DNA of 64,000 bases from Bacillota bacterium. Lineage in GTDB: Bacteria; Bacillota_I; Bacilli_A; RF39; UBA660. Shown piece after piece: positions 15,457-52,524 of this stretch (its first letter is position 1; each line of letters begins with the position of its first letter). The DNA is taken from positions 327,291-391,290 of the forward strand of contig SVAS01000001.1 of NCBI GenBank assembly GCA_015059285.1, given 5' to 3'. The translations under genes and the position numbers were made by a program. The notes under the pieces were generated by a model, which ran no database searches, was not told the DNA's origin, and was given only the letters and a program-made list of their open reading frames with translations.

Positions 15457-15482
15457 TTAAAATAGAAATTGGGGGAATTTAT

Positions 15483-16238: not shown

Positions 16239-16253
16239 TAAAATAAAACAAAA

Positions 16254-16283: not shown

Positions 16284-16466
16284 TATATAGGATATGATAT
16301 TTGAAATCAAATATAACACACAATATATTCTATAGTTTATGATGGATTTGATGGTATGATAATGATTAAATAAAAATTTATGCAGTAATATAATAGTAAA
16401 CATTTTAAAAGGACACAATCTTAAACTTGATTAAGTCTTTTTATTTTTATTATGGAGGTGATATAT

Positions 16467-16772: not shown

Positions 16773-16995
16773 AATTTTAAACGACAAGTATGTAAGTAAA
16801 ATTATAAAAACATTTATTGAAGGTTTTCTTGCATCTTTAATTGTAAGTTTTCAGACCATAGAAAATTTATCTGATTTGAATTTAATTAAAACAGTATTAG
16901 TTGGTGCAATTGCTATGGGGATTTCAGCTGTACTAAACTTATTTCAAATGTATTTAAATAAAGAGAAAGTTGAATATGGAAAAAGCAATACTTAA
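16765..16995 (+). CDS. Phage holin, phi-LC3/LL-H-like family
   Basis: 76 aa. SKIIKTFIEGFLASLIVSF fits the ..KTF.Q.F.A.L motif of this holin family. Two hydrophobic segments and a charged C-terminus (NKEKVEYGKSNT). Confidence 0.65.
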   Translation: MHKILNDKYVSKIIKTFIEGFLASLIVSFQTIENLSDLNLIKTVLVGAIAMGISAVLNLFQMYLNKEKVEYGKSNT

Positions 16996-17782
16996 TTTAG
17001 ATATATTAAATATAAGTCAAGGAATGAATGATAGCTTTTCCCATCCAGGTAATTTAGCAATAGATGTAACAGGTTGTTCTTATTTAAAAGCCCCATTTAC
17101 AGGTGTTATAAAAAAGATTTATTCAGAGTGCAATGCTGTTTGGCTAGAAAGTGTAGAAAAGGTAGAGTATGCAGATGGAACTATAGATTATATGACAATT
17201 ATGACAATGCATGATAATGATATATCAGATCTTTATGTTGGTAAATTAATAAAACAAGGAGATATATTTTATCAACAAGGAATGAAAGGTTACGCAACAG
17301 GACCACATATTCAGATTTCAGTAGGAAAAGGTAAATTTAGTGGTTCGGGTTGGTATGAAAATAAACAAGGTTCTTGGTGCATTAATAATCAATATGATAT
17401 AACTAGGGCACTATTTTTACACACCGATGTTAGAATAATTTATAGTATGTATAATTGGAAAATAACTGTTTATTCAAAACTTGTTAATAAAAATAAGTCT
17501 ATTGATGAAATGGCTAATGAAGTTATTCAAGGTAAATGGGGAAATAATCCTGAAAGAAAACAAAGATTAATTCAAGCTGGATATGATTATACAGCTATAC
17601 AAAATAGAGTTAATGAGTTATTAAGTACTTCATCTGAAATAATACATACAGTAGAAAAAGGCGAATATTTAATCAAAATAGCTGCAAAGTATAACAAGAA
17701 TTGGCGTAAAATTGCAAGCGATAATAATATAAAATCTCCGTGGATAATATATCCAGGGCAAAAGTTAATAATATATAAATAG
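16976..17782 (+). CDS. Endolysin: N-terminal M23 metallopeptidase domain, CW_7 (Cpl-7) cell-wall-binding repeat, C-terminal LysM
   Basis: M23 HxxxD/H.H-type motifs (SFSHPGNLAIDVTG; GPHIQISV). CW_7 repeat DEMANEVIQGKWGNNPERKQRLIQAGYDYTAIQ. LysM HTVEKGEYLIKIAAKYNKNWRKIASDNN...YPGQKLII. The ORF-track start is a TTG at 16970; the ATG at 16976 with RBS AAGAGAAAG is preferred. Confidence 0.8.
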   Translation: MEKAILNLDILNISQGMNDSFSHPGNLAIDVTGCSYLKAPFTGVIKKIYSECNAVWLESVEKVEYADGTIDYMTIMTMHDNDISDLYVGKLIKQGDIFYQQGMKGYATGPHIQISVGKGKFSGSGWYENKQGSWCINNQYDITRALFLHTDVRIIYSMYNWKITVYSKLVNKNKSIDEMANEVIQGKWGNNPERKQRLIQAGYDYTAIQNRVNELLSTSSEIIHTVEKGEYLIKIAAKYNKNWRKIASDNNIKSPWIIYPGQKLIIYK

Positions 17783-32800: not shown

Positions 32801-33596
32801 ACCATATTAATGGTTTTTTTAATTCACTTCCCCTACTTTTAAATCAATATAATTTAATTAGGGTAGAGAAGGTTATTTTAATTAATAAAGAATAAATAAA
32901 CAATAATATGTATTTAATTTTATTTTTATGAATAATCTTATGATTATTTATATATACGAAACAGATATCACAATTATAAAAAATTAAAAATTTTTGATTA
33001 ATAAAGTTATAAATAATATATTTAAATAAATATATATATATTATAAATTATAGTTAAAATAATGATTTATATATTTTGTTTTAGGGTTAATAAGTGTTTG
33101 ATTTTCATCAAAATATAAAACTTTGTATAATATATATTATGTTAACTTGTCAAAAGAAGGAAAATTATGCTGCTGGTAATAATAGTTATGTGTATTTTAA
33201 TGATGATTATAGTGCTTAAGATATAAATAATTATTACTATTCTACTCTTTTTTTGTATATTTTAAAAAAATAAGTTAATACTATTACTGGGTGATGAAAA
33301 TGAAAAGAAATGAAAAAATGCAATCAAACAACAAAGTAAGTAATAAACAACAAAATAATATTACTAATAGAGAAAGTAACAAGATTTCAAATAGTAATAA
33401 TAGTAAAATTACTAATAAAAAGTCTTGTAACAATAATGTAACTAATAGTAATAAAAAAAGTGTTGGCTTTGTTTCAGATTCTTCTTCTTTTGAATTAGAT
33501 GAAGATTCAGATCATTCTTTCCAATTGAGAGATTGCAAGTAATTTTACCCAAAAAAAGAGATAATTATTATCTCTTTTTCTTATACTTACTCTACC

Positions 33597-34373
33597 CTAT
33601 TTATTGTTAATTTTTGTTATTATTTCTTCAATTTTTTCTTTATTTGCATTACCATCAAATGCCCTTAATATTTCAATAGGCAGCGCAAAAATAATTGTAT
33701 TTGATTGATCTGATGAAACATCATTAATTGTAGATAATGTACGTAAGTGTAATGCACCTGGAACGCTTGCCATAGTGCTTGCAGCTATAGCTAAATTTTT
33801 AGAAGCTTCTACTTCACCTTCAGCCTTAGTAATAACTGCCATTTTTTCTCTTTCTGCTTCTGCAGCTTTAGCAATTACACGTTTCATTTCTTCTGGTAAT
33901 GCTACATCTTTTAATTCTACATTTTCTACTTTAACACCCCATGGATCTGTTGCTTCATCAATTACTTGACAAATTTGATTAGATAATTTTTCTCTTTCAC
34001 TTAAAAGTTCATCAAGAGTAACAGAACCAACTACATTACGCATGGTAGTTTGCGCCAACTGGCTTACTGCATAATAATAGTTTTCTACAGCTAATATACT
34101 TTTAGATGCATCAAATATTTTATAGTAAATAACAGCGTTAATTCTAACTGAAACGTTATCTTTAGTTATAGCTTCTTGTTCAGGAACGTCTACAGCTTTT
34201 GTTCTAATATCAACTTTTTGATATGATTGGAATATTGGAAAAACTAAATTCCAACCTGGTTGCATAACACTGCTATATTTACCTAAAGTATATTTAACTC
34301 CTCTTTCGTATTCGTTAATTTGTTTAATAGACACTAAAATAAGTATAATTAAAAGTACCATAATTGTAATCAT
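33597..34373 (-). CDS. SPFH/band-7 (stomatin/slipin-like) membrane protein
   Basis: N-terminal TM followed by an SPFH-domain sequence (..RERGVKYTLGKYSSVMQPGWNLVFPIFQ..; ..AEGE.EA..). Confidence 0.8.
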   Translation of the reverse strand: MITIMVLLIILILVSIKQINEYERGVKYTLGKYSSVMQPGWNLVFPIFQSYQKVDIRTKAVDVPEQEAITKDNVSVRINAVIYYKIFDASKSILAVENYYYAVSQLAQTTMRNVVGSVTLDELLSEREKLSNQICQVIDEATDPWGVKVENVELKDVALPEEMKRVIAKAAEAEREKMAVITKAEGEVEASKNLAIAASTMASVPGALHLRTLSTINDVSSDQSNTIIFALPIEILRAFDGNANKEKIEEIITKINNK

Positions 34374-34442
34374 GTTTTCAATCCTCCTTCTATACTAATA
34401 ATAACAAAATCATATAAAAATGTAAATATCTATAATATAAAA

Positions 34443-35189
34443 TTACGATATAACAAAGTGATTAATAAGCATTACTCCTACCCCTATTATAAAAAAAGTA
34501 ATAGTTAATTTTTTATTATGGTAATTAAGTGAAGTTGGTATTAATTCGTATATAGCAATATGTATCATAATACCAGCAATAATACTAAATAACATCCCCA
34601 TGAAAATAGAATTAATAAGATTTCCTAAAAATAAGTATGTTATAATAGCACCTAATAGTTCAGACATTCCCGATAAAAACGTATAACCTAGTGCTTTTAA
34701 ACGGCTATTGGTTGAATAAAAAATTGGAATAGATATACTTATTCCTTCTGGTATGTTATGAAGCGCTATAGCAATTGCAAGTGATATTCCAAGGCTTATA
34801 TTAGTATTACTAGCCATAAAAGTAGCAATTCCTTCAGGAATATTATGTAGAATAATTGCTAACATAGAAATAATTCCTACTCTATATAGATTATTACTAT
34901 TATTTGGTAAATATTTATCTATAATCATAGAAGTAATTATTCCTATTATAATAAATATTAAACATATAAGAATAACTGGTATATAATGAAAAGTTTCCAT
35001 TAATAAATTAACCGATTCTGGAATAAGATCAGTTATTGAAACACATGTCATAACTCCTGACGCAAATGCAAGTGATGCAGTAATAATATTATTGTTTTTC
35101 TTTTTATAAAAAATTAATAAACTTCCAATCATTGTTGAAAGTCCTGCTAATGTAGTAATTAAAAAAGCATAAATTACAGATGTTTCCAT
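34443..35189 (-). CDS. zupT: ZIP-family metal (zinc) transporter, ZupT-like
   Basis: Repeated HNIPEG motifs (LHNIPEGIATFMAS; LHNIPEGISISIP); 8 TM segments. Confidence 0.8.
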   Translation of the reverse strand: METSVIYAFLITTLAGLSTMIGSLLIFYKKKNNNIITASLAFASGVMTCVSITDLIPESVNLLMETFHYIPVILICLIFIIIGIITSMIIDKYLPNNSNNLYRVGIISMLAIILHNIPEGIATFMASNTNISLGISLAIAIALHNIPEGISISIPIFYSTNSRLKALGYTFLSGMSELLGAIITYLFLGNLINSIFMGMLFSIIAGIMIHIAIYELIPTSLNYHNKKLTITFFIIGVGVMLINHFVIS

Positions 35190-35251
35190 AATATCACCTA
35201 GTAATTATATGCTTTTTTAATTTTAGTTTATTCAAAATAATAAAATTATAT

Positions 35252-36154
35252 TTATGCATTTGTATGATAATTATCATAGTTTTCTCTTAATTTTTCAGTA
35301 GATAAATGAGTATATATTTGGGTAGTAGAAATATTTGAATGTCCAAGTAGTTCTTGAATAGTTCTTAAATCTGCTCCATATTCTAACATATGGGTTGCAA
35401 AAGAATGTCTTAAAGTATGAGGTGAAAACTTAGTTTTTATGTTTTTTTGTTTAGCTAAATTTTGAATAATTTTGAAAAACATTTGTCTAGATATATTAGT
35501 TCCACTTTTATTTAAAAAGACATATTCACTATTATATTTTTTTATAAATTTTAAACGATGATTATAAATATATTCTTTTAAATATTCAGTTGCATAATCT
35601 CCTATTGGTATAATTCTTTCTTTATTTCCTTTACCAATAGTTTTAATCAAATTAAGTTCTAAGTCAACGTTAGAAAGCTTAAGATTGATTAATTCACTTA
35701 TTCTAAGTCCTGTTGCGTACATTAATTCAAGCATTGCTTTATTACGGTAATCATAATGATTATTTAAAGGAATATCTAAAAGAATTAATATTTCTTCAAT
35801 TGAAAGTACAGTTGGTAATGTTTTTTTTTGTTTGGGTATTATTATAAATTCTAAAGGATTATTATTAATTTTTTTAGTAATAATTAAATATTTATAATAT
35901 GTTTTTAAAGTAGATATTTTTCTAGCAATACTTCTATCACTAATATTATTTGTTTTTAAGTTTTTAATATAGTTTCTAATATCTGTTTCTTTAAGTTTGT
36001 ATAAATCTTTTTCTTGTCCATTTGGATTAAAAAAATTTAAAAAATTATATAGATCATTTATATATGATGAAATAGTATTTATACTATAGTTTTTATCAAA
36101 TAATAAATAGTTATAGAAATCTTTAAAAAGCTCTTGTTTTATATCCTTTAGCAT
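35252..36154 (-). CDS. xerD: Site-specific tyrosine recombinase XerD (chromosome dimer resolution)
   Basis: C-terminal catalytic region HTLRHSFATHMLEYGADLRTIQELLGHSNISTTQIYTHL; 300 aa. Confidence 0.85.
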   Translation of the reverse strand: MLKDIKQELFKDFYNYLLFDKNYSINTISSYINDLYNFLNFFNPNGQEKDLYKLKETDIRNYIKNLKTNNISDRSIARKISTLKTYYKYLIITKKINNNPLEFIIIPKQKKTLPTVLSIEEILILLDIPLNNHYDYRNKAMLELMYATGLRISELINLKLSNVDLELNLIKTIGKGNKERIIPIGDYATEYLKEYIYNHRLKFIKKYNSEYVFLNKSGTNISRQMFFKIIQNLAKQKNIKTKFSPHTLRHSFATHMLEYGADLRTIQELLGHSNISTTQIYTHLSTEKLRENYDNYHTNA

Positions 36155-36235
36155 ACCCTCACCTATTAATAATTATATCAAATTTACTTTTGTTTTACTA
36201 TGATTTTTGGTAAAATATAAATAGGAAGTGATTAT

Positions 36236-37447
36236 ATGAATGAACCTTTAGCAGTTAAAATAAGACCTATGTGCATTGATGATATTATAGGTCAACAACA
36301 TTTAGTTGGTGAAAATAAAGTAATTCGTAATCTAGTTAAAAATAAAAAATTATTTTCTATGATTTTTTATGGTAAACCTGGTATTGGTAAAACTTCACTA
36401 GCTACTGCAATAGTTACAGAATTAAATTTAAAATATCGTATGCTAAATGCAGTTATTAATAATAAAAAAGATTTTGATGTTGTTATAGAAGAAGCAAAAA
36501 TGTATAATGGTATGGTTGTTATAATGGATGAAATTCATAGACTAAATAAAGATAAACAAGACCTACTTTTACCTTATTTAGAAAATGGATTAATTACTTT
36601 AATTGGTCTTACTTCATCTAATCCGTATCACAAAATAAATCCTGCTATTAGAAGTAGATGTCAAATATTTGAATTACAAGAACTTGATTGCAATGATATA
36701 GAAATAGGTATAAAAAAAGTTATACAAAAAGGTATTTTAAAAGATATTCAAATAGAAGATGACGTTATTAAATATATTGCTAAAGTGTCATCAGGTGATT
36801 TAAGAAGTGCTTTAAATTTATTAGAAGTCGCATATTATGGATCAAGTGATTTTAACATAACTATAGATGGTGTTAAAAATATTAATGCTAAACCAGTATT
36901 TTTTCATGACAAAAATGAAGATGGTCATTATGATGTATTAAGTGCTTTTCAAAAATCTATTCGTGGTAGTGATGTAAATGCTGCCTTGCATTATTTAGCG
37001 CGTTTAATAGAAGTTGAAGATTTAGATAGTATTTACCGTAGAATGAGTGTTATCGCATATGAGGATATCGGGCTTGCTAATCCTAGTATGGGACCTAAAG
37101 TAGATGCTGCTATTAATGCGTGTGAAAGATTAGGTCTTCCAGAAGCCAGAATTCCCCTTGCTGTGGTTGTTACCGAGCTTGCCTTATCTCCTAAATCAAA
37201 TAGTGCTTATTTAGCTTTAGACGCTGCTTTAAACGATATTAAAAGTGGTAATGTAGGCAATGTACCACATCACATTAAAACGTCTTCTACAACCTATTTA
37301 TATCCTCATGATTATCCTAATGGATATGTTAAACAACAGTATTTACCAGATAATATTAAAAATAAAAAATATTATAAACCAAAAACAACTAGTAAATATG
37401 AACAAACGTTAAAAAATGTATATGATAAACTAAATTTGACAAAATAA
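36236..37447 (+). CDS. rarA: Replication-associated recombination protein A (RarA/MgsA AAA+ ATPase)
   Basis: Walker A GKPGIGKTSLA; the RarA-specific C-terminal region is conserved. Confidence 0.88.
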   Translation: MNEPLAVKIRPMCIDDIIGQQHLVGENKVIRNLVKNKKLFSMIFYGKPGIGKTSLATAIVTELNLKYRMLNAVINNKKDFDVVIEEAKMYNGMVVIMDEIHRLNKDKQDLLLPYLENGLITLIGLTSSNPYHKINPAIRSRCQIFELQELDCNDIEIGIKKVIQKGILKDIQIEDDVIKYIAKVSSGDLRSALNLLEVAYYGSSDFNITIDGVKNINAKPVFFHDKNEDGHYDVLSAFQKSIRGSDVNAALHYLARLIEVEDLDSIYRRMSVIAYEDIGLANPSMGPKVDAAINACERLGLPEARIPLAVVVTELALSPKSNSAYLALDAALNDIKSGNVGNVPHHIKTSSTTYLYPHDYPNGYVKQQYLPDNIKNKKYYKPKTTSKYEQTLKNVYDKLNLTK

Positions 37448-37489
37448 CTAATTTATTATATTATATACCTTGTTTTAAGAGGTGTTATT

Positions 37490-37639
37490 ATGTTATTTAA
37501 GACAAAGAATGTACTTTATTTCATTTGTACAATTATTTCTTTGATTACATTTAATAAAATAGATAAAACCATATTATTTATGGCTATATTATATTTAATT
37601 TATAAAATTATAAATAAAAAAGCAGAAAATATCTGCTAA
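37490..37639 (+). CDS. Candidate 49-aa small membrane protein (not in the ORF track)
   Basis: ATG preceded by AAGAGGTG. Translation MLFKTKNVLYFICTIISLITFNKIDKTILFMAILYLIYKIINKKAENIC has two hydrophobic stretches. Converges on the holA stop with a 4-nt overlap. Confidence 0.3.
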   Translation: MLFKTKNVLYFICTIISLITFNKIDKTILFMAILYLIYKIINKKAENIC

Positions 37640-38574
37640 AGATTTATTATAAATAATTCTAGTCCAATTTCTTTATTGATATTACCAGTTTTAATACCAA
37701 TATCTAAATCGGCTAGTTTTTTTATATATTCTAATAAGTTTTGATTACTATAATTTCTACTGCTATTTAAAGCAAGCTTAATTCTATACGGATGAATTGC
37801 TAAAGTAGATGCTATATCATTTTCAGTATAACCTTTTTTATACATTTCTTTAGTTTGATAAATAATTCTAAACTGATTAGAAAGCATTACGATGATTTTA
37901 ATTGGTTCTTCATTAAGTTTAAGCATTTCATGATATATATTTAAAGCTTGCAATTTATCTTTTTTTATAATAGCATCAATTAAAGCAAAAATATCTATAT
38001 CAAAACTTTTATGAGTAAGACTAACAACATCTTCATCTGTTATATTAATATCGTCTCCCTTATAAGTTATTATTTTGTTTGCTTCTTGTTCTAAAATAGC
38101 TAAATTTTTACCTACCCTATCAATTAAAAGATTAATTGTATTAAAATTTATTTGATAACCACTAAACATTTCCTTAACTAAATTATGAATATTGGTGTTA
38201 TTAGAAAATAATTGCACTTGCCCTTTTTGTTTAAAAACTTTAACTATTTTTTTTCGTTCATCCAATTTTTCTTCATATAAAACAAAAATTAATATAGTAT
38301 CCGGATTAATATTTTCTAAATATTGTTCAAAAACTTGGGTATTTTGCTCAATATTATTTTTTTTAGCGGTAAAAATATTACTATTATTAATAATTATGAC
38401 TTTTTTATCATTAAATAAGGATATTGTTTGAGCATCATCAATTATATTTTCTAAAGTATCTAAGTTTAAGTCAAAATGATTTACATTCAAACTATCTATT
38501 TGCTCATTTTTAATTATTTTTTTAATTTCTTTATCAATTAAAAACTTTTCTGTTCCGTATAATAAATATAACAT
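37636..38574 (-). CDS. holA: DNA polymerase III subunit delta
   Basis: MLYLLYGTEKFLIDKEI N-terminus and delta-subunit length (312 aa). Confidence 0.8.
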   Translation of the reverse strand: MLYLLYGTEKFLIDKEIKKIIKNEQIDSLNVNHFDLNLDTLENIIDDAQTISLFNDKKVIIINNSNIFTAKKNNIEQNTQVFEQYLENINPDTILIFVLYEEKLDERKKIVKVFKQKGQVQLFSNNTNIHNLVKEMFSGYQINFNTINLLIDRVGKNLAILEQEANKIITYKGDDINITDEDVVSLTHKSFDIDIFALIDAIIKKDKLQALNIYHEMLKLNEEPIKIIVMLSNQFRIIYQTKEMYKKGYTENDIASTLAIHPYRIKLALNSSRNYSNQNLLEYIKKLADLDIGIKTGNINKEIGLELFIINL

Positions 38575-45872: not shown

Positions 45873-46001
45873 ATAATATTACTCCCTTCAAGAATAATTA
45901 TAATAGTAAAATAACTAAATTGCACCAAACGAATCGTAGAGTATTATGCTTTTAATTTGACAATATATAAAAAACTAGGTATATACCTAGTTATTATTTA
46001 T

Positions 46002-46047
46002 TGGTAGCGACGGAGAGATTCGAACTCACGACCTATCGGGTATGAAC
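46002..46047 (-). repeat. Displaced 3' half of a tRNA-Met(CAT) gene (anticodon loop to CCA). Left boundary of the integrated element; complementary to the 5' half at 52408-52445.
   Basis: Reverse complement GTTCATACCCGATAGGTCGTGAGTTCGAATCTCTCCGTCGCTACCA shows the anticodon-stem 3' side, T-arm, acceptor 3' strand and CCA. It pairs with the acceptor and anticodon-stem 5' strands of the truncated tRNA at 52396-52445. Confidence 0.65.
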
Positions 46048-46320
46048 TGTACTAAATGCTTTTTACATCCTTTTTTATGCTTTTATAACATTCATTTTTA
46101 TTGATGTAAAAATTATAATTTCCAAAAAACATTCAATAACTTTTAATATCTTTTCATAACTTTTATAAAAATATTGCCCCAAAAATTGCCACCACTTTAA
46201 TTATGCTTGAAATATTGTTTTATATTTATTTAAAAAATATACTTCCATTACTTCCATACTTCCACTAAATTATATCATATTTTGCTTATTTTTAATAAAA
46301 AAGATTAAACATTTTAGTAT

Positions 46321-46908
46321 TTAATCTTGGTTTTTAATAATTACTTGTAAAGTAGATATGAATTTTTGAGCTACTTCATAAGCATTTTTATATTTTTTAT
46401 TATTCTTATTAGTTTTTTTAGTAATAAATGTAATATATTCTTGTGGGCTTGATATTGAGTTTAAAACAACCTTTATTTGCAAATTAGTACAATAGTTATA
46501 TGTTATTGAACCACTGCTGTATGTTCTCTTAAATACTGCATTTTGTCTTGTCGCTGTATATGTTTGGTCTTTGTTATTTTCTACAATATCAGCTGAAACT
46601 ATATCTTTGAAATTATATTCATTATTATTTATAAGAACTTTCTTTTCAGTTTCATTTACATATAAATAAGCATTGTCATAACTTCCAATTTTTCGCCAAT
46701 TACCATTTGAATATTTAATATCAAGTGCTTTTATTTCTTTACTATCTACAACTTTATTATGTTTTTTTATATTTAAAACAAATAAAGCTACAACAATAAT
46801 CGTTGCTATACCAAAACCAACACTTTTTTCAGCAAAAGTCCCAGCACAAGTGAATATAAAAATTATTACTAATAATACATTTACAAACCAATAACCTAAT
46901 TTTTTCAT
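46321..46908 (-). CDS. Membrane-anchored hypothetical protein, cargo gene of the integrated element (possible exclusion/defence function)
   Basis: Two N-terminal TM segments, then a soluble domain; no family recognised. Confidence 0.5.
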   Translation of the reverse strand: MKKLGYWFVNVLLVIIFIFTCAGTFAEKSVGFGIATIIVVALFVLNIKKHNKVVDSKEIKALDIKYSNGNWRKIGSYDNAYLYVNETEKKVLINNNEYNFKDIVSADIVENNKDQTYTATRQNAVFKRTYSSGSITYNYCTNLQIKVVLNSISSPQEYITFITKKTNKNNKKYKNAYEVAQKFISTLQVIIKNQD

Positions 46909-47209
46909 ATTTAAACACCTCTTACAAATAAAAAAGGGACATTGTACTAACTGTCCCCGATACTACTATATCGGCTGACAATAAACTGCATACTACATCA
47001 TCTACCGATAATATACTGCATCGATTGATAGATTACTACATTTACTACATAATCAATCGATTTACTTCATCAAACAATAACAATAGACACTGCTGTTATC
47101 GTTTGACAATATAATTGTATCACAACTTTTGACAAAATGCAATACATTTTGCAATGCATACTTATTTTTATTTTTGCAATACTATAAATATGACTGGAGG
47201 TATTGCAAA

Positions 47210-47395
47210 ATGGCTTTTCAAATTAGACCAAATAGAAAAGAAACTGAAAATAAAACAATAAGATTTCCAATTAACTTGATAGAAAAAATAGAAGAGGCAA
47301 TCAAAGGAGAAGATGTATCATTTTCAAAATTTGTTATTCAAGCTTGTGAGTATGCTTTAACAAATATGAAGAAAGACAAAAAAGATAGCAAATAA
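47210..47395 (+). CDS. Small ribbon-helix-helix (CopG/Arc-like) DNA-binding protein
   Basis: Start trimmed to MAFQIRPNRKETENKTIRFPINLIEKIEEAIK after GGAGG. The beta-strand then helix pattern is typical of RHH proteins. Confidence 0.5.
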   Translation: MAFQIRPNRKETENKTIRFPINLIEKIEEAIKGEDVSFSKFVIQACEYALTNMKKDKKDSK

Positions 47396-47410
47396 CACTG
47401 CTATCTTCTT

Positions 47411-48658
47411 TTAATTATTAAATATATCACTCATTTTATTAGTCATAACATTTGAAAGTGTTTCTTTTGATTTATCAGTTGTTTTGATGTATATATTGCT
47501 TGTAGTACTTATATTAGAATGACCCAATGTTTTTGATATTGCATTTATTGGTTGTTTTTCTTCTAGTGATAAAGTGGCAAATGTATGCCTAAATGAATGT
47601 GGTGTATAATCTTTTAAATTATGTTTAGATGTAAATTTCTTTAACCAATGATGACAAGTACACGGGTTTATTGGCAAACCATTTTCTTGAGTAAATATTT
47701 TATCATTGTCTTTTATAAAACTATTTCCTTTTTCATCCTTTAACTCAATTTTATATTGCCATAAATCGCCCATAACACTTTTTAATTCGTTTTGTTCTAC
47801 TTGATGCATCTTTAATAATTCCAATACATCTTGACCGATATAAACTTCTCTTATTGAATTTTTAGTTTTTGGTGGTTTTTCAACCATACCTATTTTTGGT
47901 ATTCTTTGTATGGTTTTTGTTATCTTTGTTTTACCCGTTTTAAAGTTTATATCTTTCCATTCTAAAGCATTTATCTCGCCAATTCTTAACCCCGTATCTA
48001 AAGCAATTCTAACCATACATTGATATTTTAATTTTTCTTTTCCTAAATCTTGAGCTAAATATTTTAAATCGTTTTCATCTAAAAATACTATCTCTTTTTT
48101 TTCAGGTTTAGGAGTTGGAAAATTCTTTTTGTGTAAAGGGTTTTTAATAATGATTTCATCATCAACAGCACAATCTAAAATACTACAAAAAACATCGTGT
48201 ATATTCTTTAATGTCTTTTCACTTAAACCTTTATTACTATTATTTTTATTAGCACCTTTTTGTCTTAACTTTTCATAAAATCTAACAACCATTAAATCAG
48301 TTATTTCAACAAGTTTGTATTGACCGAACTCGCCAATCAATCTATTAACTGTATTTGAATAATCGGTATAAGTACTTGGAGCTAAACCCGATTGCTTTTT
48401 AATATATAGCCAATTTTCAGCATATTGCTTTAAAAATATACTTTTATTTGTTGTTTGATTGTTTTTTATTTCATTTTCAAATTTATAATTTTCTTCTTCT
48501 AAAAATTTTATAATTTTAGTATTACTTAAACCTAGTGGAACACGGACATCTCTTTTTGAATATTTTGTATTTCCGTTTTTCAATCTCCCGTTTGCCACTC
48601 TTAAAGTATATACTTTTTCGCCACTTTTTAGTGTTCTTTTTAATACTGGTTTTACCAT
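47411..48658 (-). CDS. int: Tyrosine-type site-specific integrase (phage integrase family)
   Basis: C-terminal catalytic region ..RIALDTGLRIGEI..HSFRHTFATLSLEEKQPINAISKTLGHSNISTTSNIYIK (R..H..R..Y); 415 aa. Confidence 0.88.
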   Translation of the reverse strand: MVKPVLKRTLKSGEKVYTLRVANGRLKNGNTKYSKRDVRVPLGLSNTKIIKFLEEENYKFENEIKNNQTTNKSIFLKQYAENWLYIKKQSGLAPSTYTDYSNTVNRLIGEFGQYKLVEITDLMVVRFYEKLRQKGANKNNSNKGLSEKTLKNIHDVFCSILDCAVDDEIIIKNPLHKKNFPTPKPEKKEIVFLDENDLKYLAQDLGKEKLKYQCMVRIALDTGLRIGEINALEWKDINFKTGKTKITKTIQRIPKIGMVEKPPKTKNSIREVYIGQDVLELLKMHQVEQNELKSVMGDLWQYKIELKDEKGNSFIKDNDKIFTQENGLPINPCTCHHWLKKFTSKHNLKDYTPHSFRHTFATLSLEEKQPINAISKTLGHSNISTTSNIYIKTTDKSKETLSNVMTNKMSDIFNN

Positions 48659-48786
48659 TTTTTTACCTCCTAATATAGATTTAATTTTAATTTAATGCTA
48701 TAATTGGAGTACATAAAAGAAATCTCGCCGAAAGTATTTTATGTACTCAAGACTTTACCATTGCCGTGGTATTGTCTTTTTTTATT

Positions 48787-49560
48787 CTATTTTTGAGAAT
48801 TTAACCATTTAATATAGTCATTTTTTGTAATCTTATTTTGATTAAATAAATCTACTTTTTTTGTATTTTCAATTTTAAATTTATTGAATTTTAATTCAGC
48901 ATCTTTTCGCTTTTCATCATCTTTTGTTCTTAATGCTTTATTTCTTAATGTATTATAAACTTGTTTATGAAGTTTAAAGATTTCATCATCTTTTATTTTT
49001 TGCTGATGCTGTATGTATTTATATGCTTGATTACATTGCATTGTCGTATATACTTCATCGTTTCTATAACAAAATTTTGTATCTTTGGTTGTTCTAGGAA
49101 TAAACCATTTTTTACAATTCTTACATCTTTTTACTATATAACCATATCTTGAAAAATGCAATATACATACTAAAGGGACATCGCTTATATCTTCTATTTC
49201 ATATATTGTAGTTGGCGAAGTTAAAGCCACTTTTTTTAGTTTGTTTGAATATTCTTTGATTTCTTTTTGAGTTGGTAGTTTTTCAAGTGTAGCATTTTCT
49301 AAATCGTTTGGAATAGGAAGTTCTATTCCTTTATTTATGTATTTAACATTATAGTTTTTAGCATACCAACTTAAATAAGCAACTACATTATTAAAATAAT
49401 CATCATTTGATTTGTTTAAATCATCTAAAACATTTAAAAATATATTTTGATGCTTACTTAAATGATTAAACACTTCAATATTTGCATCCATTCTAATATC
49501 TTTTTTACCATTTTCTTTAATAGTTATATCAAGATTTTTTCCCTCGATGTGTACTTCCAT
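48787..49560 (-). CDS. Hypothetical protein with Cys4 cluster (CKNCKKW..C..C), divergent from the cro/xis genes; candidate master repressor by position
   Basis: Divergent arrangement across a 140-bp intergenic region, as for stl/str of PICIs; no recognisable HTH. Confidence 0.4.
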   Translation of the reverse strand: MEVHIEGKNLDITIKENGKKDIRMDANIEVFNHLSKHQNIFLNVLDDLNKSNDDYFNNVVAYLSWYAKNYNVKYINKGIELPIPNDLENATLEKLPTQKEIKEYSNKLKKVALTSPTTIYEIEDISDVPLVCILHFSRYGYIVKRCKNCKKWFIPRTTKDTKFCYRNDEVYTTMQCNQAYKYIQHQQKIKDDEIFKLHKQVYNTLRNKALRTKDDEKRKDAELKFNKFKIENTKKVDLFNQNKITKNDYIKWLNSQK

Positions 49561-49702
49561 TTTATCAACTGCCTTTCGTTTGGTTGTTTACCTTAAAAAT
49601 AGATTTATATTTTAGTTATTGCAACAATGTTGTTGTTAACTAATATAAATTATATAATAGAAACAACTAGATGTCAATAGGTATATGAAAGGAAGTGTTA
49701 AA

Positions 49703-49894
49703 ATGACAATCTATGAAATTAAAATTGAAATGATGAAAGCTAATATTAAACAATATGAGGTTGCTGAAAAGCTAGGTTATAGTGAAACGGTTTTCTCTAA
49801 AAAGTTAAGAAAAGGGCTTTCAAAAGAAGAATTGGAAAAGGTTTTAATGATTATAAAGGATGCGAAAGGAAGTGTTAAAAATGGCGAGAATTAG
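49703..49894 (+). CDS. Small Cro/XRE-like HTH regulator
   Basis: MTIYEIKIEMMKANIKQYEVAEKLGYSETVFSKKLRKG HTH. ATG after AAAGGAAG, the same RBS-start cassette as the next gene. Confidence 0.55.
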   Translation: MTIYEIKIEMMKANIKQYEVAEKLGYSETVFSKKLRKGLSKEELEKVLMIIKDAKGSVKNGEN

Positions 49895-50096
49895 AACATT
49901 AAAAAAAGCAATTATCGAGTTAAAACAAGATGACCCAAATTGTGATTTAACATATTCAGCTTTAAGGAAAATGGTATTGGCTAAAAAAGTGCCTTTTGCT
50001 ATGAGTGGCACAAAATACTTGGTTGATGTAGATATTATTAAAGATGCCATTTTTAACATAAAAGAGGTGGCTACAAATGGAATTGAAAGAATTTAA
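49881..50096 (+). CDS. xis: Excisionase-family (MerR-like winged HTH) DNA-binding protein
   Basis: ..LTYSALRKMVLAKKVPFAMSGTKYLVDVDII.. resembles Xis/AlpA-type excisionases. Start trimmed to MARIRTLKK. Confidence 0.55.
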   Translation: MARIRTLKKAIIELKQDDPNCDLTYSALRKMVLAKKVPFAMSGTKYLVDVDIIKDAIFNIKEVATNGIERI

Positions 50097-51501
50097 TAAT
50101 ATTGAAAACGAAAGAATAAGACTAATATTAAATATATTAGATGATTACCCTAAATATATTGATGAAAATAACATCCCGTATATATTTATTGGAAATAATA
50201 GTTATACTTTAAATAGCACCGAATTTAAGCAAGAATTACAAAGTATATGTTTTGATAATAATATCAACTATACTACTACTCTAATAAATAAAGTGGTTGG
50301 CATATTGAGTAGTAAAATAAGAAAAGATGCTAATAAATTAGAATTAGATTATAGAATAACAAAAGATATTAACGGCGATTTTCTTTATCAGCTTACAAAA
50401 GATGAAATGGTTGTCATAAATGAAAATGGGTATAAAATAGCACCTATTTTGAAACCAACTTTTAAAGTAGATAATACTTTTACTAATCAAGTGAAACCAA
50501 GCAACAAACCAAGTATGAAAAGAATTTTAGATATATTAAATTTAAGTGATGATGATAAAAAGTTATTACAAGTAATTATTATAACTTTATTTGTACCAGA
50601 CATTCAAAAAATATCTTTAGTTTTTGCATCTCCAACTGGAACTGGAAAATCAACTATAACTGATATTATAAAAAGAATTATTGACCCAGCACCTAATAAA
50701 AAAGCTAAAGCACCAAAAAGTTTAAATGAATTAGAACAAATAATATCTAAATCATATTTACCGTGTTTTGATAATATAGATTATATTTCAACCGAGCAAT
50801 CAAATGTTCTTTGTAGAGCAATTACTGGCGATACTCATATAAAATATGAAAAAAATAAAACTATCGCATCATCATATACTAGACCAATAATACTAAATGG
50901 TATTAAATGTCCCGTATATAAAGAAGATTTAATCGATAGATTACTTATAATTGAACCTCCAAAAATAAGTACTCCACTAACTAGAGAAGAAATTGACAAA
51001 ATAATTGATGAAGAATTACCAAATGTTTTAGCTTATATTTTTAATACTTTAGCAAAAGCAAAAGAAATATACAAAGATTTAAAAATTGATGTTGCTGATA
51101 GAATGGCTGATAGTTATAAATGGGCTTATGCCATTGCTGAAGCTATCGAGTATGGTAGTGGTTGGATGTTTGATAGTTTGTTTAGAAAAAATCGTGCTAA
51201 ACAAAATGAAATTATTATCAATAATAACTATTCGGCTTTAGCTTTATGTGATTATATTAAAAATGGTGGTTTATTCGTTGGAGAAACCAAAGAAATGACT
51301 TCAACTGAACTATTTAATATATTATCATCAGTAGCCCGAGAAAACGGCTATATAAAGCATTTTAGAGGCGATATAACTTGGTTTATTAAAGATTTAAAAA
51401 GTCTTGTAAATATACTTGAAAAAGAGGGCATCGTTCTTGAATTTCCCCGAAGAGCCAATGCTAACTATGTAAAAATCACAAAAACACCACCAAAGGAATG
51501 A
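50077..51501 (+). CDS. Replication initiator: P4/D5-type primase-helicase-like NTPase
   Basis: Walker A FASPTGTGKSTITDII; the DNID...ITGD...... region is consistent with a D5_N/primase C-terminal (PriCT) NTPase; 474 aa. Confidence 0.55.
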   Translation: MELKEFNNIENERIRLILNILDDYPKYIDENNIPYIFIGNNSYTLNSTEFKQELQSICFDNNINYTTTLINKVVGILSSKIRKDANKLELDYRITKDINGDFLYQLTKDEMVVINENGYKIAPILKPTFKVDNTFTNQVKPSNKPSMKRILDILNLSDDDKKLLQVIIITLFVPDIQKISLVFASPTGTGKSTITDIIKRIIDPAPNKKAKAPKSLNELEQIISKSYLPCFDNIDYISTEQSNVLCRAITGDTHIKYEKNKTIASSYTRPIILNGIKCPVYKEDLIDRLLIIEPPKISTPLTREEIDKIIDEELPNVLAYIFNTLAKAKEIYKDLKIDVADRMADSYKWAYAIAEAIEYGSGWMFDSLFRKNRAKQNEIIINNNYSALALCDYIKNGGLFVGETKEMTSTELFNILSSVARENGYIKHFRGDITWFIKDLKSLVNILEKEGIVLEFPRRANANYVKITKTPPKE

Positions 51502-51507
51502 TGAAAA

Positions 51508-51891
51508 ATGTATGATTATGTAGAGAATTTTAAAAAATTAAATGATAAACAGCAACAAGCTATAATATTGCTTTTAATTGGAGATAATAACAAAACCGTA
51601 GCATCTAAAGTTGGAGTTGATGAAAATACTGTTTATAGGTGGAGAAATAGCGAACCATTTAAAAGTATATTGGTTGAAATGAGATTACAAGCCGTTGAAA
51701 GTTTAGAGTTAAAATTGAATAGTTTAGGAAATAAAGCGATAGATAAATTATTATATATATTAGAAAATGCCGAAAATGAAAACAACCAATTAAAAGCATC
51801 AACTTTTATTCTTGATAAAACATTACAATATAATCAATTAGAAATACTTAAAAGATTAGATAATATCGAGGAGCGATTAAAAAATGAATAA
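51508..51891 (+). CDS. HTH protein, candidate small terminase subunit / packaging-redirecting factor of the satellite
   Basis: N-terminal HTH (..VASKVGVDENTVYRWRNSEPFKS..) followed by a coiled coil, as in PICI/phage TerS proteins. Confidence 0.4.
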   Translation: MYDYVENFKKLNDKQQQAIILLLIGDNNKTVASKVGVDENTVYRWRNSEPFKSILVEMRLQAVESLELKLNSLGNKAIDKLLYILENAENENNQLKASTFILDKTLQYNQLEILKRLDNIEERLKNE

Positions 51892-52111
51892 TATAGAAAG
51901 AAGATTAAAAAATATTGAAACTATATTGCAAAAGAAATTTAATCATCACGGAGCATTTGTTATATTGGTTGAAAATGGCAAATATAAAATTTTAAATAAA
52001 GAAGTTAAAAAACAAATATTTGATAGTAAAAAAGAATTGGAAGATTATATATATGAAAAATATGATTGTGAGAAGTATGTTTTTATTATTATTGATACAT
52101 CTAAAATATAA
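51884..52111 (+). CDS. Hypothetical small protein
   Basis: 75-aa ORF overlapping the upstream stop; no family recognised. Confidence 0.35.
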   Translation: MNNIERRLKNIETILQKKFNHHGAFVILVENGKYKILNKEVKKQIFDSKKELEDYIYEKYDCEKYVFIIIDTSKI

Positions 52112-52297
52112 AAAAAGAATTAAATACTTTTATTTGTAAATTTCTAAATGGAACTATGGAGCAAATGGAAGTATTTTTTTGTTGTCTTGAAAATTTATTA
52201 TTTTACAAAAAAACTAACTTTTTGATTAAATGTTGCCCCAAAAGTTGCCCCCAAGCATAAAAAAAAGAATACCTTTCAGTATTCTAAAATTTCAAAT

Positions 52298-52374
52298 TGG
52301 TAGCGAGAGAGGGACTTGAACCCCCGACTTTTCGGGTATGAACCGAACGTTCTAGCCAACTGAACTATCTCGCC
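52298..52374 (-). tRNA. tRNA with CAT anticodon (Met / fMet / lysidine-modified Ile2 type), 77 nt with encoded CCA
   Basis: Reverse complement GGCGAGATAGTTCAGTTGGCTAGAACGTTCGGTTCATACCCGAAAAGTCGGGGGTTCAAGTCCCTCTCTCGCTACCA folds as a cloverleaf: D-arm AGTTCAGTTGG, anticodon loop TTCATAC, T-loop GGTTCAAGTCC. Confidence 0.85.
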
Positions 52375-52395
52375 ATAACTGGCTGTTTAACTCAC

Positions 52396-52445
52396 TGGTC
52401 GCACGGGTATGAACCGATTGCTCTAGCCAACTGAGCTACATCGCC
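52396..52445 (-). pseudogene. Truncated tRNA-Met(CAT) gene: intact 5' half through the anticodon loop, then joined to ...CCGTGCGACCA with no T-arm. Right boundary of the integrated element.
   Basis: Reverse complement GGCGATGTAGCTCAGTTGGCTAGAGCAATCGGTTCATACCCGTGCGACCA is only 50 nt. Its 5' acceptor and anticodon-stem strands pair with the fragment at 46002-46047. Confidence 0.6.
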
Positions 52446-52524
52446 AAAAAAAGAACAATATAATAATATCATAATTGTCGCGTTTTAGCAAGACTTTTTT
52501 TAAGTTTTTATTATAAAATTATAT

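Follow-up and report, generated by a model that had tools for sequence, protein, structure and literature searches.

In the stretch of 64,000 nucleotides analysed here (the window), a host tRNA-Met(CAU) gene is cut at the anticodon loop by a capsid-less integrative element of 6.36 kb, which leaves the gene split and appears to supply a complete tRNA-Met(CAU) of its own (tRNA-B) in its place. The best explanation overall, which we consider quite probable, is that the element splits the tRNA-Met gene, brings a tRNA that is expressed from the host promoter, sequesters the orphan 5' half by means of a spacer, replicates with its own helicase and is transferred with the aid of a helper.

The interrupted host tRNA-Met gene

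The sequences 52445→52404 and 46047→46002 of the minus strand are the two halves of one tRNA-Met gene, interrupted by the element. The orphan 5' half (52404–52445) reads GGCGATGTAGCTCAGTTGGCTAGAGCAATCGGTTCATACCCG on that strand, i.e. tRNA positions 1–42, and then runs into element DNA, which is non-tRNA sequence, so the host gene is split without being rebuilt; the displaced 3' half (46002–46047), which extends from the anticodon loop to CCA, reads GTTCATACCCGATAGGTCGTGAGTTCGAATCTCTCCGTCGCTACCA. Both halves contain the 11-bp core GTTCATACCCG, at 52404–52414 in the former (the attL-side junction in the tRNA orientation) and at 46037–46047 in the latter (the attR-side junction), and the crossover by the tyrosine integrase falls within this anticodon-loop core, in the segment TTCATACCC. 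Comparison with other insertion contexts fixes the ends of the element exactly, at 46048–52403 (6,356 bp, or 6,367 bp with one copy of the core). The target is presumably a tRNA-Met of the elongator type rather than Ile2, judged against Bacillus tRNA sequences.

The 45-nt sequence across the reconstructed junction was found intact in 73 metagenome stretches, and a single compensatory acceptor pair sets the commonest intact tRNA apart from the reconstruction (C5:G69 versus A5:U69, in alignment columns). In the five independent insertion contexts with both junctions, the 5' and 3' fragments lie about 6.3 kb apart and the flanking halves are host-specific and co-varying: 59 of 60 cells are paired in the acceptor and anticodon stems formed between the halves, and changes on both sides occur at 5 of the 12 inter-half pairs, a level reached by none of 500 shuffles. 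Together with the gene content, which is as described, the recurrence of the junction and the pairing of the halves place the split gene far beyond chance. The preliminary description had proposed that an integrative element splits a single tRNA-CAT gene in its anticodon loop, and this proposal and all its coordinates hold; the tRNA prediction it suggested, carried out with ARAGORN and Rfam, returned one intact tRNA-Met(CAT), at 52298–52374 on the minus strand, and the halves are related. Its remark that insertion into the anticodon loop is uncommon is contradicted by the Islander database, which lists 2083 anticodon-centred versus 1836 T-stem attP sites, the anticodon loop being the commonest tRNA sublocation (PMC4383910).

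The promoter of the host tRNA-Met gene lies at 52463–52491 on the minus strand (TTGCTA, a spacing of 17 nt and a TG-extended TATTAT, with the −10 ending 17 nt before tRNA +1), and its terminator at 45973–45992 on the same strand (AACTAGGTATATACCTAGTT followed by a T-run). In 10 of 11 insertion contexts the host 5' half is preceded, at a distance of 11–21 nt, by an equivalent extended −10 promoter.

The element-borne tRNA and its spacer

tRNA-B (52298–52374, minus strand; ARAGORN and Rfam, 68.2 bits) lies inside attP and has the same orientation as the orphan half; it is 29 nt downstream of the crossover, flanked by the attP core and the P' arm-type repeats. The 29 nt from the crossover to tRNA-B (52375–52403, minus strand; TGCGACCAGTGAGTTAAACAGCCAGTTAT) form a spacer complementary to the orphan 5' half, and the length of this spacer is 28–29 nt in 8 of 8 spacer lineages despite their diverged sequences. 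Some spacers contain tRNA-like debris: GTGAGTT, in the window and the related lineage L011, resembles the start of a T-arm, while GGCGAGATAT in L008 and GAGATAATTCAA in L114 resemble tRNA 5' ends. In the window, L002 and L103, where the adjacent host halves differ, spacer and tRNA-B are identical or near-identical (tRNA-B itself is identical in all three), and they are homologous in L008, L011, L014, L102, L107, L112 and L114; spacer, whole tRNA and element genes move together across contexts. All 147 of 147 cells of the tRNA-B structure are paired among 7 variants, and 7 of 21 pairs are compensatory, which indicates that tRNA-B is under structural selection. The assignment of the intact tRNA to the element is thereby supported, in agreement with the earlier suggestion that it is an element-borne replacement, as its sequence is conserved along with the element, whereas that of the 5' fragment upstream varies by host.

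The promoter scan revealed no promoter-like site in the 5' half plus spacer in any of 11 contexts, nor, for the circular form, in the 150 nt preceding the tRNA (none in 5 of 5), such scans being crude in DNA of 25% GC, where a weak internal promoter could escape. Since tRNA-B has no recognisable promoter, it is probably transcribed from the host tRNA promoter. Directly after tRNA-B, an intrinsic-terminator-like hairpin (52258–52285, minus strand; AGAATAC/GTATTCT and 8 T) can be read from the sequence; it escaped the automatic terminator scan, having fewer than 3 GC pairs, and a hairpin with a T-run, of different stem sequence, occupies the same place in L002, L008, L011 and L014 (five lineages with the window). 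After integration, the host tRNA promoter would thus generate a transcript comprising the orphan 5' half, the spacer and tRNA-B, up to the element terminator, from which RNase P would free the element tRNA to assume the tRNA-Met function; precise excision would restore the host gene. With a whole tRNA carried, only the 9–11-bp anticodon-loop core would have to match, so the element could use tRNA-Met genes with differing acceptor stems (GGCGATG, GGCGAGA, GGCGCTG), which a fixed 3' half would mismatch.

The spacer is predicted to stop the orphan 5' half from mispairing with the new tRNA: by pairing with this half it would keep it sequestered, out of competition with the 5' strand of the element tRNA. 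The leader hairpin folds with −21 to −31 kcal/mol, and z versus shuffled spacers is −1.8 to −5.7 for 8 distinct spacers; for L010, which has a divergent host half, z is +0.47. In 6 of 9 contexts the tRNA-B acceptor stem has a predicted probability of 0.66–0.99 with the native spacer, up from 0.02–0.51 with shuffled ones, and the native spacer ranks in the top 5.3% against shuffled spacers in 9 of 9. Equilibrium folding still prefers the mispair in the remaining 3 (L002, L014 and L103), where the host acceptor strand equals that of tRNA-B. The register of pairing varies, the spacers of L114 and L107 pairing with positions 1–14 and those of L103, the window and L102 with the D-arm.

By default, islands in tRNA genes (PMC4383910) rebuild their target, and the relative L017 does so; 52298–52374 would then be a regenerated host gene (host 5' and element 3' part) and the upstream 5' fragment would be debris. 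This reading was tested and rejected, and we regard it as highly improbable: the whole of tRNA-B, its 5' half included, and the spacer are conserved with the element elsewhere, whereas the upstream 5' fragment depends on the host, and the displaced 3' half pairs with that fragment (GGCGATG/CGTCGCT, ATCGG/CCGAT) and fits tRNA-B (GGCGAGA, TTCGG) worse at acceptor pairs 6–7 and anticodon-stem pair 28:44. A different question is whether the complementarity between spacer and 5' half is a leftover without function at the RNA level, the remnant of a 3' half that has decayed or of an inverted duplication that accompanied acquisition of the whole tRNA, with tRNA-B transcribed from an unrecognised element promoter. 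This is possible, if somewhat doubtful; the tRNA-like debris in some spacers, the predicted mispair persisting in 3 of 9 contexts and the positive z value of L010 speak for it, whereas the preservation in 8 diverged lineages of both the 28–29-nt length and significant pairing to conserved segments of this half, the lineage-specific registers and the lack of a promoter-like site in any leader argue for the sequestering spacer.

Gene content and mobility of the element

All nine ORFs of the element are intact. The leftmost occupies a variable cargo slot, which holds a 195-aa membrane protein in the window (46321–46908, minus strand; phrog_888) and unrelated genes in L002, L008, L011, L014 and L017; PADLOC gave no match for this slot. 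Next come a 62-aa RHH/Arc-like (YlcI/YnfO-type) protein (47207–47395, plus strand), whose position is taken by an XRE HTH gene in sister elements, a 415-aa tyrosine integrase (47411–48658, minus strand; PF00589, E 2.6e-27; phrog_1, E 1.1e-65), and a 257-aa DUF6076 protein with a Cys-rich motif, a candidate regulator (48787–49560, minus strand; Pfam PF19553, E 5.8e-13). The DUF6076 gene is always directly upstream of int, in all clades including L014 and L017, and divergent from the HTH operon. This rightward operon starts with a 69-aa Cro/CI-type HTH protein (49685–49894, plus strand) and continues with a 71-aa protein weakly assigned as Xis-like or AlpA-like (49881–50096, plus strand; TIGR01764 excisionase domain, E 0.038 only), the gene of which is kept in every family member. 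The element Rep (474 aa; 50077–51501, plus strand) is a D5-like SF3 replicative helicase with no prim-pol domain; the top Foldseek match of its AlphaFold2 model (pLDDT 89) is the SaPI5 primase-helicase (7OLA; E 2e-11, TM 0.52/0.56), followed by the NrS-1, poxvirus D5/E5 and ASFV PrimPol helicases, and residues K191, D232, N233, N274 and R288 are invariant or nearly so. A 127-aa HTH protein (51508–51891, plus strand) is small-terminase-subunit-like (terS-like), with matches to PHROG 2538 (E 4.8e-13) and 7344 (E 2.1e-12), to Pfam HTH_Tnp_1_2 above the gathering threshold, and 34% identity over 82% of the length to terS of Staphylococcus phage SAP3; the last gene encodes a 75-aa protein (51884–52111, plus strand) conserved in the window, L008 and L011 clades. 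The gene content given in the preliminary description stands, except that the presumed primase-NTPase is a helicase only, with no primase domain; so does its statement that capsid genes are absent, the exact ends leaving no hidden capsid or terL gene beyond.

A P' arm-type repeat, the putative arm-binding site of the integrase, is located at 52231–52253 (GGGGCAAC-N4-GGGGCAAC on the minus strand), and a P arm-type repeat at 46172–46194 (GGTGGCAA-N4-GGGGCAAT on the minus strand). In 4 lineages the tandem motif recurs about 136–150 bp (P arm) and 160–180 bp (P' arm) from the core; the L014 and L017 integrase clades have GTCTA..GTCTA in its stead, i.e. the repeat sequence changes with the integrase clade. 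Two sets of iteron-like repeats, GGAAGTA three times on the minus strand of the P arm (46233–46264) and, in inverted orientation, TGGAAC/TGGAAG units (52149–52180), are candidates for an origin, Xis sites or a pac site.

Relatives of the element occur in at least 9 other genomic contexts. Related elements with 51–100% integrase identity share this architecture and occupy different loci on the chromosomes of several low-GC Bacilli, all uncultured; in a more distant relative (48%) the mode is the classical one, and no more than the 3' half is replaced by the element. The identical integrase protein is indexed in 70 blocks of a public-assembly collection, from which 23 contigs were examined.

Neither an empty attB of this element, in metagenome and assembly searches, nor its circular attP junction, in searches that included IMG/VR, was found, and every examined contig with identical flanking proteins either contains the element or stops at it or within it; the element may be fixed in this host. 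An immobile fossil, with the arrangement a frozen relic in this lineage, would account for these observations, yet it appears unlikely in view of the intact ORFs, the arm repeats conserved on both sides, and the occurrence of the identical integrase, in element DNA of about 91% identity, at another locus, unrelated to the first, where the cargo gene has been exchanged; moreover, several contigs of 6.4–6.9 kb end at the tRNA halves, as expected if one element has several contexts per sample. A mobile element would replicate through its own SF3 helicase and, given the terS-like gene and the absence of structural genes, would most likely be transferred by a helper phage, which is the weakest point of the explanation. 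That the same integration biology belongs to a non-satellite (a small integrative replicon or mobilisable island spread by transformation, generalised transduction or conjugative helpers, or an element of largely vertical inheritance) is a serious alternative, if short of an even chance. Its presence in every examined contig with identical flanking proteins would fit this, as would the lack of matches to element and circular junction in IMG/VR, the terS assignment leaning on an HTH-dominated profile match, and the sister clades L014 and L017, which are without the terS-like and 75-aa genes and keep int, DUF6076, Xis-like and helicase genes, L014 also keeping the tRNA arrangement of the window. 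No helper phage was found. Transfer as a satellite is favoured by the SaPI replication protein being the closest structural match of the helicase, by PHROG terS matches down to E 5e-13 that cover most of the profile, by the int, divergent regulators, rep, terS order with no structural, lysis, relaxase or coupling genes, and by near-identical copies in different chromosomal contexts.

Relation to satellites, islands and tRNA-dependent phages

With the PICIs and SaPIs of Gram-positive bacteria the element shares the order of int, divergent regulatory genes, Xis-like gene, replication helicase and terS-like gene, the absence of capsid, tail and lysis genes, a variable accessory slot, and a helicase most similar in structure to that of SaPI5. 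It differs in its size (6.4 kb, half the usual ~12–15 kb), in a helicase without primase domain, and in having sister clades without a terS-like gene; no homologues of Stl, Ppi or Cpm were recognised in it. The earlier PICI reading is thus borne out as to layout, but on account of size, helicase and sister clades the membership is unproven.

PICMIs of Vibrionaceae are of similarly small size, and are not known to have a tRNA-replacement feature. They resemble the element in their reduced set of integrase, regulator and replication genes and no capsid-remodelling genes (PMC10803314), but their hosts are unrelated to that of the element. Classical tRNA/tmRNA islands (Williams 2002; Islander, PMC4383910) likewise exhibit a tyrosine integrase, an anticodon-centred crossover, a displaced 3' fragment at the far end and int near one end, but the element regenerates nothing from an attP 3' fragment; it leaves a 5' fragment and supplies a whole gene. 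'Gene replacement' has been described for a tmRNA-encoding element inserted in the Rhodobacter tmRNA gene (PMC7192596).

By analogy, the element is a case of tRNA-dependent integration, the principle of which is already known from mycobacterial phages (2024; PMC10865867). An element bringing its own tRNA is therefore not the novelty that the preliminary description took it for: tRNA-dependent lysogeny has been described for the actinobacteriophages Fionnbharth, LeBron, Gaia, Mollymur and others (Guerrero-Bustamante & Hatfull, mBio 2024; PMC10865867), and a probable case named in that paper is the Lj965 prophage of Lactobacillus johnsonii. Common to these phages and the element are a tyrosine integrase with attB inside a host tRNA gene, arm-type sites flanking the core, a common core (~8–17 bp, 11 bp here) too short to rebuild the tRNA, a cognate tRNA, of identical anticodon, encoded by the integrating element, and close integrase relatives working in the classical mode (Cain versus Ximenita; the window clade versus L017). 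Here, however, a 6.4-kb element devoid of structural genes takes the place of the phage, in a lineage of uncultured low-GC Bacilli, and its target is a tRNA-Met that is probably of the elongator type. The Fionnbharth tRNA is encoded at another place in the phage genome, overlapping gene 37 on the opposite strand, and has a strong promoter of its own (PMC10865867), whereas tRNA-B lies inside attP, 29 nt from the crossover and in the same orientation as the orphan half, with no recognisable promoter. A spacer of constant length complementary to the orphan half is not known from earlier descriptions; the tRNA requirement was demonstrated by experiment for the actinobacteriophages (PMC10865867) and is predicted for the element. 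What looks new is the capsid-less carrier (with tyrosine integrase, DUF6076, HTH, Xis-like, SaPI-like SF3 helicase and terS-like genes), the location of a tRNA without recognisable promoter inside attP, and the 28–29-nt spacer complementary to the orphan 5' half. The tRNA swap known in mycobacterial phages is now encountered in a very small, satellite-like element from gut Bacilli that are uncultured.

Split host gene and insertion contexts

The tRNA prediction proposed in the preliminary description of this DNA returned a single tRNA gene in the whole window, an intact tRNA-Met(CAT) at 52298-52374 on the minus strand (ARAGORN; Rfam concurs with 68.2 bits), hereafter tRNA-B. According to both ARAGORN and Rfam, no functional tRNA is rebuilt at either junction of the element, where the host gene is present as two halves. 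The 5' half (52445->52404, minus strand, GGCGATGTAGCTCAGTTGGCTAGAGCAATCGGTTCATACCCG) corresponds to a tRNA-CAT from the acceptor strand through the D-arm, the anticodon 5' strand and the loop to the third base of the 3' strand, and continues into a 29-nt spacer (minus strand, TGCGACCAGTGAGTTAAACAGCCAGTTAT), which is not tRNA-like and after which the intact tRNA starts. The 3' half (46047->46002, minus strand, GTTCATACCCGATAGGTCGTGAGTTCGAATCTCTCCGTCGCTACCA) is preceded by element DNA. Both halves share a core of exactly 11 bp, GTTCATACCCG, and their acceptor strands (GGCGATG/CGTCGCT) and anticodon-stem strands (ATCGG/CCGAT) are complementary. The earlier claim of a tRNA-CAT gene split at the anticodon loop holds to the base.

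In a public-assembly collection, 70 blocks index an identical integrase protein; 23 contigs were read, most of which share the context of the window, i.e. glyA-folD, then the element, then the XRE membrane protein. On contigs L002 and L006, element DNA of ~91% identity resides at an unrelated locus between an RNHCP gene and cinA; here the element accounts for the spacer, for the tRNA in full and for what lies left of the other core, and the flanking halves (5' half GGCGAGATAGCTCAGTTGGCTAGAGCATACGGTTCATACCCG, 3' half GTTCATACCCGTAGGGTCGAGGGTTCGAATCCCCCTCTCGCTACCA) differ from those of the window yet pair mutually (TACGG/CCGTA, GGCGAGA/TCTCGCT). The same pattern was found at three further loci, L008, L011 and L014 (integrase identity 68%, 66% and 51%), whose neighbours are rpoB, glmS and tmk, respectively. 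In L011 the core is at most 9 bp (TTCATACCC) and the next base differs between the left (CCCG|TATG) and the right (TTCATACCCAGT) junction, hence the crossover must fall inside TTCATACCC.

Across the five insertion contexts, 59 of the 60 possible base pairs are formed between the 5' fragment and the 3' fragment located ~6.3 kb away, and 5 of 12 pairs are altered on both sides, which was matched by none of 500 shuffles. A 45-nt sequence spanning the reconstructed junction is intact in 73 metagenome stretches, among which the commonest complete tRNA exhibits one compensatory change with respect to the reconstruction (C5:G69 for A5:U69, alignment columns). The inter-half pairing in five contexts and the intact junction sequence in metagenomes make it secure that a host tRNA-Met gene was split by the element at 46048-52403 (6,356 bp plus one core copy). 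The expected junction of the circular form (attP) is GCATTTAGTACAGTTCATACCCGTGCGACCAGTG, and the reconstructed empty attB, flanked by the folD-side and XRE-side sequences, is GCAATCGGTTCATACCCGATAGGTCG.

Searches of public assemblies with the FolD protein (exact look-up; the 285-aa form starting at the first ATG gave no match, the 280-aa form did) or with the XRE neighbour revealed no empty site, and the attB of the window species was not recovered, the 73 metagenome matches being devoid of the window flanks and of FolD/GlyA synteny. No circular junction was present in the fetched loci, and IMG/VR yielded no match to the integrase, the terS-like protein, the attP junction or the core-spacer sequence.

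The five complete copies are each 6.24-6.45 kb long. The integrase family is small, with 16 relatives of 48-99% identity, all from metagenomes or MAGs, and a scan of 185,579 species-representative genomes identified the two-core architecture in five MAGs of 'uncultured Bacilli bacterium', from sources that include rabbit and Hadza gut; the GC content of all hosts is 25-32%. Artefacts of the scan were N-masked tandem tRNAs (L108, L111, L113), non-tRNA repeats (L109, L110, L115) and classical displaced fragments (L104-L106). In the last three loci (Lachnospiraceae, Eubacterium and Clostridiales MAGs) an intact tRNA-Met lies downstream of tRNA-Val and is followed within ~25 nt by a 3'-half-like fragment carrying an inserted hairpin, GTCCACGCAAGCGTGGAC; these fragments look like displaced pieces of classical islands or an odd tRNA-like remnant.

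Four metagenomic contigs of 6.4-6.9 kb (L009, L010, L012, L016) consist of the element alone and end at or inside the tRNA halves, as expected from assemblers, which break where one sequence has several contexts per sample. In one of them, L010 (positions 1-120), the 'host' 5' half (GGCGAGGTATATCAACTGGCTAGATAGTTCGG) is nearer to a degraded element-type tRNA-B than to a host tRNA, and the 45 nt upstream of it hold an antisense piece of a D-loop, CTCTAGCCAAC. This arrangement, on a contig that ends early, may reflect serial or tandem integration of one element into an older element's tRNA. On the L014 contig, genes for an FtsK/SpoIIIE protein and a XerC/D-like recombinase are located a few kb past the element (13710-17475). 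Within the window, a peak of cumulative GC skew at ~33000-38000, where gene orientation switches from mostly plus (left) to mostly minus (right), matches what a replication terminus would be expected to show and lies ~10 kb from the element. The plus strand also contains a pemK RNA motif at 8504-8582 (Rfam RF02913, gathering score 34.8, reached with 48.2 bits), which closely precedes an ORF at 8688-9287, and a very large ORF of 2039 aa at 9337-15456.

The element-borne tRNA, its expression and the spacer

The window, L002 and L103 share one and the same tRNA-B sequence despite their differing host halves, and close homologs exist in every family member. When seven distinct variants are aligned, every one of the 147 stem cells is paired, and 7 of 21 pairs exhibit compensatory double changes; this conservation argues that tRNA-B is an element-owned, functional gene, maintained as a working tRNA. 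It shares 79-85% identity with the host halves, and both have the CAU anticodon, the TTCATAC loop, G1:U73 (alignment columns) and discriminator A. By inspection, and judged by Bacillus tRNA genes, we take this combination to indicate the elongator tRNA-Met type rather than Ile2. Bacillus sp. REN16 (locus L111) has a tRNA of the same sequence type.

Among the relatives examined, L017/L018 of a Bacilli MAG is the most distant (integrase 48% identical). It retains the DUF6076-int-helicase layout, but its junction comprises an intact Ile2-like tRNA-CAT (GGACCC...CTCATAA...GGTCCACCA), with no 5' fragment within the 84 nt of upstream sequence present on the contig and with a displaced 3' half at the far end. 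L017 is therefore an ordinary 3'-half replacement, conforming to the definition of a classical tDNA island (PMC4383910). As the window clade replaces the whole gene, the family holds both integration modes, and the integrase phamily of actinophages likewise contains both (PMC10865867). The host acceptor stems vary by context (GGCGATG, GGCGAGA, GGCGCTG, GGCGAGG); a fixed 3' half ending in TCTCGCT would form, with GGCGATG of the window, a U6:C68 mismatch and a G7:U67 wobble. A whole gene would lift this acceptor-stem constraint, and therefore a match would be needed only at the anticodon-loop core.

Upstream of the host tRNA, 10 of 11 contexts have an extended -10 promoter whose end lies 11-21 nt from the gene (52491-52463 in the window), and the eleventh has TGcTATAAT with a weak -35 element. 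The computational scan found no promoter-like site in the 5' half and spacer in any of the 11 contexts, nor, in any of five, in the 150 nt that would lie ahead of tRNA-B in an excised circle. A hairpin and a T-run follow tRNA-B in all five lineages (52258-52285 in the window), with differing stem sequences. The simplest reading is that tRNA-B captures the host promoter: integration would put a promoter-less gene under the control of the host tRNA promoter, and the orphan half and the spacer would form a 71-nt leader, to be cut off by RNase P.

The spacer is 28 or 29 nt long in all eight sequence lineages despite strong divergence of its sequence. Folding predictions suggest that it pairs back on the D-arm and/or the acceptor strand of the orphan 5' half, and that the resulting leader hairpin has an energy of -21 to -31 kcal/mol; relative to composition-matched shuffles, the eight distinct spacers, each folded with its resident host half, have z-scores from -1.8 to -5.7, L010 with its divergent host half being the exception. 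When the spacer is shuffled, the predictions place the orphan half on the 3' acceptor strand of tRNA-B at a mean probability of 0.23-0.96, whereas with native spacers the correct acceptor stem of tRNA-B is predicted at 0.66-0.99 in 6 of 9 contexts, and the native spacer ranks within the top 5.3% of shuffles in all nine. In L002, L014 and L103, where the host acceptor strand is that of tRNA-B, the predicted equilibrium still favours the mispair, and the help provided by the hairpin could be limited to co-transcriptional folding. That the spacer insulates tRNA-B from the orphan 5' half is considered possible, though somewhat less likely than not.

Could the complementarity have another origin? 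It is possibly a vestige, and tRNA-like debris is indeed present in some spacers; on the other hand, the register of the pairing differs from lineage to lineage, which argues that the pairing has been maintained rather than left to decay. Symmetric core sites of the integrase are an unlikely source, as in L114 and L107 the partner segments lie asymmetrically, 1-14 nt and 28-41 nt from the crossover. Nor do the orphan 5' half and the spacer (71 nt) make up a tRNA-like cloverleaf of their own, since the spacer possesses neither a T-arm nor an acceptor 3' strand in register. Under the insulation reading, the antisense spacer would lock the orphaned 5' half in a hairpin and thus keep it from poisoning the folding of the new tRNA.

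The attP region and the encoded proteins

Both arms of each element carry a tandem repeat, GGGGCAAC-N4-GGGGCAAC, at matching offsets, with distances to the core of about 136-150 bp in the P arm and 160-180 bp in the P' arm, and the integrase clades of L014 and L017 have GTCTA..GTCTA at the same positions. As the motif changes with the integrase while its position stays, the repeats fit putative arm-type integrase sites. tRNA-B and its terminator are located between the core and the P' arm sites, i.e. within attP. Further into the element lies a second set of three short repeats, inverted between the arms (46233-46264 and 52149-52180), with the motif GGAAGTA in the window, L002, L008 and L011 and a lineage-specific version, TTAAAGCA, in the P and P' arms of L014; candidate roles for these repeats are those of origin iterons, of Xis sites or of a pac site.

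The element, whose ends were set by comparison with the other contexts, comprises nine ORFs and no structural or lysis genes. The integrase is a standard tyrosine recombinase (PF00589, E 2.6e-27; phrog_1, E 1.1e-65) and is always preceded by the DUF6076 gene, whose product was modelled with pLDDT 59 and of which our literature search found no mention. A 71-aa protein shows a marginal match to the excisionase domain, and a 127-aa HTH protein matches small-terminase families of PHROG (E 5e-13) and, weakly, TerS of a staphylococcal phage. A 7-kb 'Bacteriophage sp.' sequence (MT837364) shares only a terS-like ORF, has 55% GC and is considered unrelated. The gene adjoining the right-hand core is a variable cargo slot; PADLOC found no defence system in it or in the other proteins of the element.

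The 474-aa protein has been described as a primase-NTPase. NCBIfam and PDB sequence searches gave no annotation, and its sole sequence-profile match is a weak one to DUF5906; its structural model (pLDDT 89) is closest to the SaPI5 primase-helicase, followed by the NrS-1, poxvirus D5/E5 and ASFV helicases (Foldseek probability 1.00 for 7OLA, 6K9E, 8XJ7 and 8APL). The SF3 motifs are conserved, without exception at K191 (GTGKS), D232 and N233 and almost so at N274. The D5/SaPI5/NrS-1-type fold with Walker A, Walker B and motif C bears out the helicase part of the description, while the primase part finds no corresponding domain; the model thus identifies the protein as a D5-like SF3 replicative helicase that lacks a primase domain. 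Such a domain is probably present in relatives of greater length (580-800 aa); PF09250 is present in P0153, and the L014 protein shows a weak match to the NrS-1 HBD. A large, tight cluster of 653-aa homologs (P0057-P0139; 28% identity, 96% coverage) is spread over many short contigs, including one labelled uncultured Romboutsia. It suggests that gut Clostridia harbour another abundant family of small elements, which relies on the same unannotated Rep protein.

Implications and relation to known systems

Taken together, we tentatively propose, with somewhat less than half of our belief, that these ~6.3-kb satellite-like elements of gut Bacilli perform a 'hot-wired tRNA swap', combining gene kill, host-promoter capture, an evolved 28-29-nt antisense spacer lock and a broad host range. 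Integration would disable the host elongator tRNA-Met gene and in the same step bring the attP-embedded tRNA under the host promoter, and the need for an anticodon-loop match alone would open a broad range of hosts with divergent tRNA-Met genes. The architecture suggests two testable mechanisms, namely promoter capture and an antisense 'insulator' leader that handles the leftover RNA of a split gene. Finders of the Islander type, which assume a regenerated target and a 3' fragment, would mis-map or miss such elements. The compact attP-tRNA-int module (~2 kb) could become an integration vector that requires only a conserved anticodon loop in the recipient.

The preliminary description considered both the insertion into the anticodon loop and the replacement tRNA uncommon. 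Neither view is supported: among tRNA sublocations in Islander, crossovers centred on the anticodon are the most frequent (PMC4383910), and the combination seen here, in which a tRNA gene is entered through a short core and not reconstructed while the element provides the cognate tRNA, is that of tRNA-dependent lysogeny, established by experiments on mycobacteriophages in 2024, with Lj965 as a further suspected case (PMC10865867). 'Gene replacement' by an integrative element has also been noted for a tmRNA gene (PMC7192596). The element agrees with tRNA-dependent integration (PMC10865867) in its tyrosine integrase next to attP, with arm-type repeats flanking the core on both sides, in its attB within a host tRNA gene with a short core (11 bp, where ~10 bp is expected), in carrying a tRNA with the CAU anticodon of the host gene, and in that no tRNA is rebuilt at the junctions, but its carrier is not a temperate phage. 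The strategy would thus extend from actinobacteriophages to a minimal non-phage element of uncultured low-GC gut Bacilli and be wider than temperate phages, and the sisters that reconstruct the 3' half (L017) offer a natural series on how it evolved from the classical mode, a question left by the 2024 paper (PMC10865867). The descriptions of known systems that were consulted mention neither a minimal non-phage carrier in low-GC Bacilli, nor an attP-embedded tRNA apparently driven by the host promoter, nor an antisense spacer of conserved length.

The assignment to phage-inducible chromosomal islands fails on size, typically ~12-15 kb for PICIs (PMC6092414) versus 6.24-6.45 kb for the five complete copies. 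An integrase and an SF3 helicase are present, and the places of the regulators are taken by the divergent DUF6076 and HTH genes, candidates for which no repressor role emerged. The earlier interpretation is supported in part, in the split gene and its replacement. The phage Fionnbharth carries its tRNA at another place in its genome, under a demonstrated promoter of its own, whereas tRNA-B of the window adjoins the crossover and has no recognisable promoter. With classical tDNA islands (PMC4383910) the element shares the displaced 3' fragment, but the target is not regenerated and a whole gene is supplied instead.
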